From NCBI GenBank assembly GCA_903813345.2, contig CAIIXF020000001.1, positions 6,882,001 through 6,946,000 on the forward strand: a DNA stretch of 64,000 nucleotides, given 5' to 3'. The translations under genes and the position numbers were made by a program. Positions 33,849 to 42,800 of the stretch are shown one piece after another. Below the pieces are notes generated by a model, which saw only the letters and a program-made list of their open reading frames with translations, did no database searches and was not told where the DNA came from. The stretch's first letter is position 1. Each line of letters begins with the position of its first letter. This DNA comes from Owenia fusiformis (Eukaryota).

Positions 33849-36800
33849 CTGGAAATACCAACACAATAATACAAATATTACTTCCAAAACATGCAATAAA
33901 CTTTGGACAAATTGGTACCTTAGCTGAGACCGTGACATTAAATAATTGATAATATGATATCTGTAATAATAATATATATAATACAATAATTAATTGCATA
34001 TTGTATCCAAAGAGCTTTTGTTTGGCAATATACATACCACACATAAATATTTGTTCATTTCATCAATATATCTTCTGGCCTTAAAGTCTCATGTCTAATG
34101 TGTGATGAGATAATAAAAACAAAAGGGTTAGGAAATAATACAAACTTAGAAATCACAGGAGCCATTCTACCCATATCAAAACAGGCACCACTACCATCCA
34201 TCAATGACTATTTTAGACCAAAACACAGGAGTGTACAGGAGTGGTTCTTAATCTTTTAGAGATGATTACCAATTGGCTTAAAAGCTTAGAAATTGTATCT
34301 ATATTCATTTTATACATGGATCATGCAATCATAATAGTAATATTCCCTGTCATCTCTACTCACTTAAAGCTAAAATAAATCTTCTAATAATATGAGAAAT
34401 GGATTAGAAAAAACAATATTTCCCATGATGTTATCTATATTCAATTATTCTAATGAACATGCTATGAACATGATTGATAAGCATGTACATGAACAATGCT
34501 TGAAACATTTAGAATGGTCATTGTGTTAAAATAAATCTAAAGAATATGGCCTTCACTTTAGCATGACTTACATCAATGATGTGTTAATTTTACTGAAATC
34601 ACCGGAAGCTACGAAAATACAGCCTACTATAAAGTGATAGAGCAAAACAATACATCAAAATTTCAGGCAATAAAGAACACCTTGAAATTAGCAATTACAT
34701 AAATGTTCAACAGAATTCAGGCTTTATTACATTCACATTGGGGATAAATATACACATACGTGTACATTGACTAACAAGGGAGTTGTTAAAAAACCTAATG
34801 GGAGCAAACAAATCCAATTGGCATACACAGGGGTAACCTTTAAAGGCAAACACATTCTGAGGGCAATCAAATTTAAAGATAAAGACAGTCAGATAAGGTC
34901 TATGAAACAATTAATCTTAAGGTGTTTTTAACTAATTTACTAATTATTCTTAACAGCCATTTCTTAATAAACCCTGGTTTCTAGACTAGGGGTTCCACAA
35001 ACCTGAGTTTCTAGCACCACCAAAGGGCTGTTGGCCAACGACAGAACCTGTAGATTTATCATTGATGTAGAAATTGCCTGCTGCCTGGATGAGTGTGTCA
35101 TGTACCTCATCTATGATGGCCCTGGAACAAAATTAAACACCTGGATGAGTGTGTCATGTACCTCATCTATGATGGCCCTGGAACAAAATTAAACACCTGA
35201 ATGAGTGTGTCATGTACCTCATCTATGATGGCCCTGGAACACAACTAAACACCTGGATGAGTGTGTCATGTACCTCAACTATGATGGCCCTGGAACACAA
35301 TTAAACACCTGAATGAGTGTGTCATGTACCTCATCTATGATGGCCCTGGAACAAAATTAAACACCTGGATGAGTGTGTCATGTACCTCATCTATGATTGC
35401 ACTGGAACACAGTTAAACACCTGGATGAGTGTGTCATGTACCTCATCTATGATGGCCCTGGAACACAATTAAACACCTCAATGAGTGTCATGTACCTCAT
35501 CTATGATGGCCCTGGAACACAATTAAACACCTGGATGAGTGTGTCATGTACCTCATCTATGATGGCCCTGGAACACAATTAAACACCTGGAAGGGTGTGT
35601 CATGTACCTCATCTATAATAGCCCTGGAACACAATTAAACATCTGGATGAGTGTGTCATGTACCTCATCTATAATAGCCCTGGAACACAATTAAACACCT
35701 GGATGAGTGTGTCATGTACCTCATCTATAATAGCCCTGGAACAATTAAACACCTGGATGAGTGTGTCATGTACCTCATCTATGATGGCCCTGGAACACAA
35801 TTAAACACCTGGATGAGTGTGTCATGTACCTCATCTATGATGGCCCTGGTACACAATTAAACACCTGAATGAGTGTGTCATGTACCTCATCTATGATGGC
35901 CCTGGAACACAACTAAACACCTGGATGAGTGTGTCATGTACCTCATCTATGATGGCCCTGGAACACAATTATACACCTGAATGAGTGTGTCATGTACCTC
36001 ATCTATGATGGCCCTGGAACACAATTAAACACCTGGAAGAGTGTGTCATGTACCTCATCTATGATGGCCCTGGAACAAAATTAAACACCTGAATGAGTGT
36101 GTCATGTACCTCAACTATGATGGCCCTGGAACACATTTAAACACCTGAATGAGTGTGTCATGTACCTCATCTATAATGGCATTGGAACACAATTAAACAC
36201 CTGAATGAGTGTGTCATGTACCTCATCTATGATGGCATTGGAACAAAATTAAACACCTGGATGAGTGTGTCATGTACCTCATCTATGATGGCCCTGGAAC
36301 ACAATTAAACACCTGAATGAGTGTGTCATGTACCTCATCTATGATGGCCCTGGAACACAATTAAACACCTGAATGAGTGTGTCATGTACCTCATCTATGA
36401 TGGCCCTGGAACACAATTAAACACCTGAATGAGTGTGTCATGTACCTCATCTATGATGGCATTGGAACACAATGAAACACCTGAATGAGTGTGTCATGTA
36501 CCTCATCTATAATAACCCTGGAACACAATTAAACACCCGGATAAGTGTGTCATGTACCTCATCTATGATGGCCCTGGATCACAGTTAAACACCTGGATGA
36601 GTGTGTCATGTACCTCATCTATAATAGCCCTGGAACACAATTAAACACCTGAATGAGTGTGTCATGTACCTCATCTATGATGGCCCTGGAACACAATTAA
36701 ACACCTGGATGAGTGTGTCATGTACCTCATCTATGATGGCCCTGGAACACAATTAACCACCTGAATGAGTGTGTCATGTACCTCATCTATGATGGCCCTG

Positions 36801-39800: not shown

Positions 39801-42800
39801 ATTGGAACACAATTAAACACCTGGATGAGTGTGTCATGTACCTCATCTATGATGGCCCTGGAACACAATTAAACACCTGGATGAGTGTGTCATGTACCTC
39901 ATCTATAATAGCCCTGGAACACAATTAAACACCTGGATGAGTGTGTCATGTACCTCATCTATGATGGCCCTGGAACACAATTAAACACCTGGATGAGTGT
40001 GTCATGTACCTCATCTATAATAGCCCTGGAACACAATTAAACACCCGGATGAGTGTGTCATGTACCTCATCTATGATGGCCCCGGAACACAATTAAACAC
40101 CTGGACGAGTGTGTCATGTACCTCATCTATGATGGCCCTGGAACACAATTAAACACCTGAATGAGTGTGTCATGTACCTCATCTATGATGGCATTGGAAC
40201 ACAATTAAACACCTGGATAAGTGTGTCATGTACCTCATCTATAATGGCCCTGGAACACAATTAAACACCTGGATAAGTGTGTCATGTACCTCATCTATAA
40301 TGGCCCTGGAACACAATTAAACACCTGGATGAGTGTGTCATGTACCTCATCTATGATGGCCCTGGAACACAATTAAACACCTGAATGAGTGTGTCATGTA
40401 CCTCATCTATAATAGCCCTGGAACACAATTAAACACCTGAATGAGTGTGTCATGTACCTCATCTATGATGGCCCTGGAACAAATTAAACACCTGAATGAG
40501 TGTGTCATGTACCTCATCTATGATGGCCCTGGAACAAATTAAACACCTGGATGAGTGTGTCATGTACCTCATCTATGATGGCCCTGGAACAAAATTAAAC
40601 ACCTGAATGAGTGTGTTATGTACCTCATCTATGATGGCCCTGGAACACAACTAAACACCTGGATGAGTGTGTCATGTACCTCATCTATGATGGCCCTGGA
40701 ACAAATTAAACACCTGAATGAGTGTGTCATGTACCTCAACTATGATGGCCTTGGAACACATTTAAACACCTGAATGAGTGTGTCATGTACCTCATCTATG
40801 ATGGCCCTGGAACACAATTAAACACCTGAATGAGTGTGTCATGTACCTCATCTATGATGGCCCTGGAACACAATTAAACACTCGGATGAGTGTGTCATGT
40901 ACCTCATCTATGATGGCCCTGGAACACAATTAAACACCTGAATGAGTGTGTCATGTACCTCATCTATGATGGCCCTGGTACACAATTAAACACCTGGATG
41001 AGTGTGTCATGTACCTCATCTATGATGGCCCTGGAACACAACTAAACACCTGGATGAGTGTGTCATGTACCTCATCTATGATTGCACTGGAACACAATTA
41101 AACACCTGAATGAGTGTGTCATGTACCTCATCTATGATGGCCCTGGAACACATTTAAACACCTGAATGAGTGTGTCATGTACCTCATCTATGATGGCCCT
41201 GGAACACAATTAAACACCTGAATGAGTGTGTCATGTACCTCATCTATGATGGCCCTGGAACACAATTAAACACCTGGATGAGTGTGTCATGTACCTCATC
41301 TATGATGGCCCTGGAACACAATTAAACACCTGGATGAGTGTGTCATGTACCTCATCTATAATGGCATTGGAACACAATTAAACACCTGGATGAGTGTGTC
41401 ATGTACCTCAACTATGATGGCATTGGAACACAATTAAACACCTGGATGAGTGTGTCATGTACCTCATCTATGATGGCCCTGGAACACAATTAAACACCTG
41501 AATGAGTGTGTCATGTACCTCATCTATGATGGCCCTGGAACACAATTAAACACCTGGATGAGTGTGTCATGTACCTCATCTATAATGGCATTGGAACACA
41601 ATTAAACACCTGGATGAGTGTGTCATGTACCTCATCTATGATGGCCCTGGAACACAATTAAACACCTGAATGAGTGTGTCATGTACCTCATCTATGATGG
41701 CCCTGGAACACAATTAAACACCTGGATGAGTGTGTCATGTACCTCATCTATAATGGCATTGGAACACAATTAAACACCTGGATGAGTGTGTCATGTACCT
41801 CAACTATGATGGCATTGGAACACAATTAAACACCTGAATGAGTGTGTCATGTACCTCATATATGATGGCCTTGGAACACATTTAAACACCTGGATAAGTG
41901 TGTCATGTACCGGGTTTGTATAAAAAACCTCATACCTCATACCCACTTACCCACGTACGTTGGACATGATACAGTCTTTGAAAAGAAGTTCAAAAGTCTA
42001 CTGGCCACACGATGCATGTAACATCATGGTGTCATTATAATGAATCAGAGGGAGAAGTAGATGTATGAAATATGATAAATAAATAGTTACAGTATTAGTA
42101 TGAGTATTCATTTAGTCTCACTTAGTTTTTCTTCCTTATCAAATAATTCACTCATATATTATGGTTTTATGCAGAAATATAATGTTGAATACACATAAGT
42201 GTATTACGTTTACTCAATAGTTTTTAACAATAGTCCACCTACAATGGCTAATTGACAGAGCCAGGGTTATTGCTATCAGGTTTTGGCCCCAGGTGTATGA
42301 ACTTCTAGTAGTGAAAGGGGATCGACCAACAGAGTGGTCCAAAAAAATGGGACACTCATATTTCAAAAATAAAAATTGATATTATTAATGAAAACATATC
42401 ATATTATATACCAGTGGATAGGGAATTTACTTATCTTTAATTTGGTATATCATAAGTTCAAATTTATGATAATGCCTATCAACCAGCGTCCATAATTCAA
42501 ATGACGTGATTTTCGTTTCAAAACGGTTTTTCAAAAACTTTTAAAAATCAATTTTTTTGTCAACATAAACAGAAGTTCAATATGTCCACTATTCTGATCA
42601 AATATAGCCTTCAATCTTGGCATAAACTTTTTGATATTATCATTGATATGCTTTTGAAAGAATAAATTCCACTTCTCCGCAATTCTGTCCTTAAGGGACT
42701 GAATAGATGTAAGGGGTTCATGGTACACCAACTCTGTTAGTTAGCATTAGGTGTTCTGGTTTGAGGGGAAAATTAAGGGGGATGATTCAATATGTCCTGC

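Follow-up and report, generated by a model that had tools for sequence, protein, structure and literature searches.

A satellite-sized array of copies of the intron 11/exon 12 junction lies within ALDH4A1 of the annelid Owenia fusiformis

We analyzed a 64,000-nt stretch of the Owenia fusiformis genome (here called the window; GenBank assembly GCA_903813345.2, contig CAIIXF020000001.1, positions 6,882,001 to 6,946,000, with coordinates below counted from its first letter). The window carries ALDH4A1, the gene for delta-1-pyrroline-5-carboxylate dehydrogenase (P5CDH), on its minus strand. We found that intron 11 of this gene contains a tandem array of about 105 copies of a 56-bp unit, and that the unit consists of the end of intron 11 and the beginning of exon 12. 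The array is probably a junction-derived repeat of the type called a mirage, which has expanded to its present copy number as a near-neutral passenger of the intron and is bypassed by the spliceosome.

Results

The array copies the boundary between intron 11 and exon 12

We rebuilt the gene model of ALDH4A1 using the database protein P0002, an entry named Owenia fusiformis with which an exon peptide of the gene shares 100% identity. The gene has 13 coding exons, all 12 of its introns begin with GT and end with AG, and the 1680-nt spliced coding sequence (CDS) translates exactly to the 559 aa of P0002. Intron 11 is the largest intron of the gene, and the other introns measure 177-4,459 nt. When we looked for Owenia transcript-derived proteins across exons 11-12, the protein search gave P0002 alone at 100% identity (1 of 112 hits), as it also did among the 120 hits listed for the exon peptide.

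Tandem Repeats Finder, run over the window, reported a repeat of period 56 at 35084-41911 with 121.4 copies and 84% matches. This copy figure takes in a foreign insertion of 935 bp at 37936-38870. By segmentation on an invariant anchor, we counted 105 full units and, at 41911-41889, a partial first one of 23 nt. The unit reads, on the minus strand, TGTTTAATTGTGTTCCAG/GGCCATCATAGATGAGGTACATGACACACTCATCCAGG (here and below, a slash within a sequence marks a splice position), in which the first part is the 18-nt 3' end of intron 11 and the second is the 38-nt 5' end of exon 12. The exon part of the last unit (35139-35084) has no mismatches to the array consensus. Beyond it, exon 12 continues in the unique CAGCAGGCAATTTCTACATCAATGATAAA, which encodes 10 residues, and the unique part of the exon amounts to 81 nt. 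An earlier reading of the window, made from its letters alone (the sequence-only reading), had described the unit as an amplified intron 11/exon 12 junction, had held that only the final unit runs into the conserved exon, and had called the 559-aa enzyme otherwise intact. The segmentation and the gene model agree with all of this, down to the exact minus-strand consensus.

The units are closely similar to one another. Among the 105, 94 are in-register 56-mers, and the identity of these 94 to the consensus averages 96.6%; 10 of them are identical to it. Altogether, we counted 54 distinct unit sequences among the 105 units. The unit variants form local higher-order repeats (for example, GAB-GAB and HEDFC...EDFC), and pairs of identical units peak at lags 5 and 7. 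Such blocks are a signature of unequal exchange. In contrast to the shared variants and higher-order repeats inside the array, the unit at the upstream edge is degenerate and truncated, and the flank immediately upstream of it contains degenerate ATGAGGT motifs. The higher-order repeats and the degenerate edge unit together indicate concerted evolution inside the cluster from which the edges are excluded. Searching the 64 kb with the 38-nt exon part at three or fewer mismatches, we found 95 matches, all on the minus strand within the array. There were no copies outside the array in the window at this threshold, and shuffled sequences gave 0 matches.

Judged from the orthologues, the exon part of the unit is ancestral coding sequence, and the repeat arose from the exon/intron junction. 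The 12 residues that precede AAGNFY have ungapped counterparts of equal length in orthologues (KVIDEATEKLKN in Tubulanus, EVIDELSDIFID in P0075, and DVVDEATRLLRN in frog), and the I-D-E and L/F positions are common to the 12 duplicated codons and the orthologue residues. Because the orthologues hold homologous residues at the same length, the 12 codons are ancestral and not derived from a satellite. On the same evidence, we rejected the candidate in which a satellite supplied the 12 codons to exon 12. We also rejected a transposon-internal repeat as the origin of the array, since no terminal repeats bound the array and conserved coding sequence forms its 3' end.

Table 1. Features of the array and of the neighboring part of ALDH4A1 (window coordinates)
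Feature	Coordinates	Strand	Remarks
56-bp tandem array (mirage-type satellite)	35084..41911	-	105 full units + 23-nt partial unit
Truncated first unit (GGTACATGACACACTTATCCAGG)	41889..41911	-	Upstream array edge
Authentic 3' splice region (intron part of last unit)	35122..35139	-	From gene model and segmentation
Exon 11 (122 nt)	48221..48342	-	Ends ..GCCAAAGATCA; split codon CA/G = Gln
Intron 11 (13,099 nt)	35122..48220	-	Donor GATCA/GTAAGT
Exon 12 (119 nt)	35003..35121	-	First 38 nt (35121-35084) = exon part of last unit
Exon 13, last coding exon including stop	33733..33848	-	Joined to exon 12 in RNA reads
MITE-like insertion inside array (935 bp)	37936..38870	.	12-bp TIRs ATCCCATCGAAC / GTTCGATGGGAT
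MITE, miniature inverted-repeat transposable element; TIR, terminal inverted repeat.

ALDH4A1 also carries a second boundary-spanning tandem duplication, at 33692-33776 on the minus strand, in which the last ~10 codons and the stop (GACTGGAAATACCCATATATGGAAGGATAA) are repeated once. The copy lies 42 bp later, in the 3' untranslated region (UTR), with 83% identity, and it ends in TAG. At the other end of the gene, ~250 bp upstream of exon 1 (61853-61819), a tandem array at 62104-62996 shows periods of 90, 171, and 271 bp in about 3-9 copies.

Splice signals within the units

The motif TTCCAGG occurs 90 times in the array region, once at the real site at 35121 and 89 times as a decoy acceptor. 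The sequence-only reading had announced about 100 decoys; the decoys are real, but the count of intact TTCCAG/G sites is 89. The acceptor AG is missing from 14 of the 94 in-register units, and unit position 18 belongs to the more variable ones (13 of 94). From this variability we drew no inference of selection against the decoy AGs, because unit variants spread by block duplication. The sequence CTCAT, which we take to fit the branch-point consensus yUnAy, lies 24 nt upstream of the next AG in 83 of the 105 units.

Unit junctions create the sequence CATCCAG/GTGTTT, and AG/GTGTTT is found in 97 of 105 units. It is not present in the single-copy state; the last unit reads CCAG/GCAGCA. The unit also carries GAG/GTACAT. 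Each decoy acceptor is followed by GT motifs 16 and 37 nt downstream and then by another unit. We compared the splice sites of the unit with those of the 12 introns of ALDH4A1 itself. Only a T at unit position 10 (TTTTGTTCC; the TTTTG variant, present in 5 of the 94 in-register units) sets the authentic acceptor apart from most decoys, and it slightly lengthens the pyrimidine run there. If exon 11 were joined to a decoy and the unit read through, a stop codon would follow within 11-23 codons for 88 of the 89 decoys and at 40 codons for the remaining one, so the earlier claim that use of an upstream acceptor without a compensating donor would wreck the enzyme holds: the read-through would truncate it.

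RNA at the array stays at the level of pre-mRNA

We aligned four runs to positions 33400-35310, a reference that includes four units and no exon 11. Two of these were stranded RNA (X21 and X22), one was raw DNA reads (X24), and one was DNA contigs (X1). The RNA in X21 and X22 was sense to ALDH4A1, and the joint between exons 12 and 13 (33846 to 35001) was found in 11 reads of X21 and 6 reads of X22. The sequence-only reading had named lack of expression of this copy as a result that would refute it; as this splicing shows, the copy is expressed. Depth over exon 13 and the 3' UTR was 7.5-11. In the two exon 12 bins, it was 11.7/8.9 (X21) and 8.3/7.7 (X22), and in the three array bins, onto which 105 units collapse as about 3.3, it was 6.4/7.8/3.5 (X21) and 0.41/0.47/0 (X22). 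Exon-level depth persisted through the bin at 35064-35127, and in X22 it was then ~19-fold lower (0.41) in the next bin. This places the acceptor in use at the last unit, in line with the earlier proposal that the spliceosome skips the decoys.

Per array nucleotide, the signal computed from binned depth was ~0.19 in X21 and ~0.01 in X22, compared with 0.22 and 0.003, respectively, in intron 12. We concluded that the array RNA is at the level of pre-mRNA, with no excess, and that steady-state RNA shows no use of the decoys. No joints from or into decoy acceptors were found among the joints listed for X21 and X22 on this reference in steady-state RNA. Likewise, when the array signal was compared with that of intron 12, host-intron retention or decoy-junction transcripts above background were not found in this steady-state RNA, in which nonsense-mediated decay (NMD) was unblocked. 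Both the exon 12-13 joint and the depth profile therefore indicate regular splicing despite the duplicated AG/GT, although NMD could hide aberrant forms.

The window differed from the covering reads and contigs at 35010 (X21, X22, and X1) and at 35073 (X21, X22, X1, and X24); X24 had no reads at 35010. On the plus strand these changes are T>C (AGA>AGG) and A>G (AAT>AAC), respectively, and both are synonymous.

DNA runs across the border of the array

The single-copy contig of X1 (1,584 nt, 33531-35113) stops exactly where the last 31-mer holding unique exon sequence ends. Summed contig depth in X1, which is not a copy number, was 12,952-26,164 in the array bins and 86.7 in the flank. We also found that RNA reads on the last units bear the variant letters of upstream units (among them 35130 A>C and 35245 C>T). 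X24 covered the unique part at ~0.73x, with 5 differences in 70 nt of intron 12. Its depth on the array bins was 0, versus ~19x expected for ~105 similar units; dips in depth are weak evidence. This suggests that the array is absent or strongly diverged in the individual or lineage of X24.

Directly downstream of ALDH4A1, positions 33400-33530 are a very high-copy repeat, with a summed depth in X1 of 288,583 versus 86.7 for single-copy sequence. At this repeat, RNA and raw DNA reads alike pile up strongly on both strands, with many different loose ends.

The insertion in the array and other repeats

The MITE-like insertion contains internal tandem repeats of ~135 bp and palindromic AAAATGGCGGCCATTTT motifs. 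Elsewhere in intron 11, a 46-nt fragment of this element lies at 45508-45553 with 87% identity, and an open reading frame (ORF) at about 46100-46339 includes a 12-residue stretch similar to the element. The MITE-like element probably belongs to a dispersed family.

Away from the gene, near-identical ORF pieces lie in opposite orientation at 6011-6208 and 8451-8648 (for example, VPSIHKKWCSRCTIYTNYFCILEARQ...) and at 5519-5698 and 8961-9212. These are inverted repeat copies a few kilobases apart. Short tandem arrays lie at 29719-30040 (79 bp x 4.1 at 97% identity) and at 617-877 (30 bp x 8.7).

Discussion

The Owenia array and the mirages of amphioxus

The sequence-only reading knew of no described satellite of this sort, and on this point it has to be corrected: the mirages of amphioxus duplicate intron/exon boundaries as well, at a far smaller scale (PMC3087553, PMC3902484). 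Mirages are described for Adh3 (the founding case, Canestro et al. 2002) and the globin genes BflGb6 and BflGb9 (Ebner et al. 2010, PMC3087553) and for TnC and PGBD5 (PMC3902484). The BflGb6 unit consists of the 3' end of an intron together with exon 2's 5' portion, measures 150-160 bp, and is present in 6 and 3 units in two haplotypes, and the units of the Adh3 mirage measure 10-72 bp (PMC3087553). Many mirage units hold AG/GT, the authentic copy is the terminal one, regular splicing is unaffected, and the units evolve in concert, with the edges not homogenized (PMC3087553).

The Owenia array has the same features. It is a head-to-tail repeat whose period of 56 falls within the 10-160 bp of mirage units, at 96.6% mean identity. 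Its unit spans an intron/exon boundary together with the splice signal, and the boundary is authentic, in that the gene model equals P0002 and the exon part is homologous to the orthologues. The array abuts this boundary, and its terminal copy is the authentic one, which is used and continues into the unique part of exon 12. Splicing is undisturbed as far as steady-state RNA shows, and concerted evolution excludes the edges. Length polymorphism and somatic instability are reported for the Adh3 mirage; at the Owenia array, the zero depth of X24 beside the very deep contigs of X1 is weak evidence of such variation.

In contrast to the amphioxus mirages, the Owenia array belongs to an annelid (Spiralia) and not to a cephalochordate, and it has a higher-order repeat structure and a transposon insertion. 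With ~105 units in 6.8 kb, it is also of satellite size, unlike the BflGb6 mirage with its 6 and 3 units. By the features tested, the array is a member of the mirages; what is new is the phylum and a copy number roughly 20-fold greater than in the globin case. We found no mirages outside amphioxus in the literature searched.

Other systems share single features with the array. In AGGT tandem-duplication intron gain (PMC3265369; potato RdRp, PMC4974935), new GT...AG pairs remove the whole duplicate and restore the message. Each Owenia unit junction likewise creates AG/GT, but the Owenia duplicates lie upstream of an existing acceptor in an existing intron, and no new intron is needed. The gigantic introns of Y-linked fertility genes in Drosophila resemble the array in that long tandem repeats have to be transcribed and then removed by splicing if the gene is to function (PMC6508621). 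However, the Drosophila satellites are simple repeats of megabase scale that bear no relation to the splice sites of their genes and require a dedicated expression program (PMC6508621), whereas the Owenia array measures 6.8 kb and its units copy the real acceptor. The chicken LL2R transcript is also made from a tandem array and has many predicted splice sites, but its unit is noncoding with an excess of donor sites, and it recruits splicing factors and forms nuclear condensates (bioRxiv 10.64898/2026.03.19.712899). Finally, human splicing-associated tandem repeats and intronic variable-number tandem repeats are intragenic as well, and their length can associate with splicing; unlike the Owenia units, they are not made from the junction itself (PMC10078293).

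A junction-derived passenger of the intron

We favor the following course of events. A 56-bp segment across the border of intron 11 and exon 12 would have been duplicated, and the duplicate would have expanded to ~105 copies through slippage and unequal crossing-over, leaving an array that now lies wholly within intron 11. The array would be transcribed as part of the pre-mRNA and removed along with the intron, with exon 11 joining the acceptor of the last copy. This acceptor presumably wins by exon definition, as the sole copy that runs on into the other 81 nt of exon 12 and the donor behind them, and its marginally better pyrimidine tract may also contribute. Most likely, the array is selectively near-neutral and young or lineage restricted.

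Several points weigh against this account. The GAG/GTACAT of the unit resembles the exon 3 donor CAG/GTACAG, and its CAG/GTGTTT resembles the exon 12 donor CAG/GTTTGT. Since these GT motifs are like real donors of ALDH4A1, sequence alone does not disqualify them, and the fact that decoys are ignored is not explained by sequence alone. The evidence that 35121 is used comes from binned depth and the annotated protein and not from reads across the exon 11-12 junction. NMD would hide RNAs spliced to decoys, so a low array signal is no proof that decoys are unused. X21 has an antisense depth of 1.4-2.0 on the array, which pre-mRNA does not explain. The array depth of X1 could reflect a copy number above 105, either in a longer array or through further loci. 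Finally, the neutrality of the array is an assumption.

Alternative explanations

It is unlikely that the 56-bp unit belongs to a dispersed satellite family with arrays at other loci of the genome. The summed depth of X1 on the array is 149-302 times that of the flank at every reference position, with ~4 units as the reference, and it would imply more than 105 copies if each contig was placed once. Copies elsewhere could also be the source of the antisense array reads of X21. However, summed depth does not give a copy number, and 95 of the X1 contigs fit two places. Moreover, there is no copy outside the array within the 64 kb, the unit runs colinear to ancestral coding sequence, and the array ends exactly in the exon.

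We consider it improbable that the array regulates its host gene. The sequence-only reading had suggested that copy number tunes productive versus NMD-targeted transcript, which the available RNA data do not support. In this model, the ~89 extra acceptors would vie for U2AF/U2 or draw the exon 11 donor to themselves, some transcripts would be lost through NMD or delayed, and copy number would thereby set ALDH4A1 output. In its favor are the 89 intact TTCCAG/G sites, the 83 of 105 units with CTCAT at -24, and the stop codons within 11-23 codons after 88 of 89 decoys, and the presence of the array may vary between individuals, as the zero depth of X24 suggests. X21 has ~15 times more array signal than X22; however, its intron 12 signal is also higher, so the difference looks like one of pre-mRNA content. 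Per nucleotide, the array RNA matches the background of intron 12 in the same sample, and there are no decoy joints among those listed. Furthermore, the amphioxus mirages give no aberrant mRNAs (PMC3087553, PMC3902484), and we found nothing pointing to conservation, or to selection on copy number.

Very doubtful, in our view, is an array whose ~90 tandem copies of a complete 3' splice module (branch-like CTCAT, pyrimidine tract, and CAG), each with AG/GT behind it, load U2AF/U2 and U1 on the nascent intron, where the array would serve as a brake or NMD valve on ALDH4A1 output that depends on copy number, or be cleared by recursive, self-correcting whole-unit splices. If the array were active in this way, differences among Owenia lineages in its presence or length (it is deep in X1 and missing from X24) would amount to heritable differences in expression.

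There is very little chance that the array is an assembly artefact, an over-expansion or mis-join of a junction present in a single copy or a few copies. Tandem arrays are error-prone in assemblies, and the window disagrees with the runs at 35010 and 35073. Nevertheless, the 54 distinct unit variants stand in local higher-order order, a TIR-bounded insertion lies within the array, the array contigs of X1 are very deep and its flank contig ends right at the border of the repeat, and letters of upstream-unit variants turn up in RNA reads. These higher-order patterns, the internal transposon insertion, the X1 contigs, and the variant letters in RNA argue against an artefact. The published Owenia assembly was made with PacBio reads of N50 25-31 kb (PMC9977687). 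This far exceeds 6.8 kb, and such reads would span the array if the window stems from that assembly.

Equally remote is a self-correcting or recursive removal, in which a decoy splice is undone from AG/GT to the CCAG/ of the last unit or the intron is removed stepwise: a second splice would excise a whole number of units and restore the normal mRNA, AG/GTGTTT is found in 97 of 105 units and not in the single-copy state (CCAG/GCAGCA), and the geometry matches that of AGGT tandem-duplication intron gain (PMC3265369, PMC4974935; model in PMC3087553), but no such joints are among those listed, the CCAG acceptor has a poor pyrimidine tract, and the scheme is inferred purely from motifs.

Implications

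Read as a junction-derived passenger, the array at ALDH4A1 is a natural experiment on the choice of 3' splice sites. In it, ~89 acceptors identical in sequence are transcribed minutes ahead of the real one, and the mRNA is still correct. This argues that the context downstream of an acceptor, and not the acceptor itself, decides the choice. At the ALDH4A1 locus, the array is also apt to mislead gene prediction and the mapping of reads. In the literature searched, it extends the mirage repeats from amphioxus to Spiralia and to the scale of a satellite. Junction-derived tandem repeats may thus be a wider, underreported source of intronic satellites, of cryptic splice sites, and possibly of new introns or exons.

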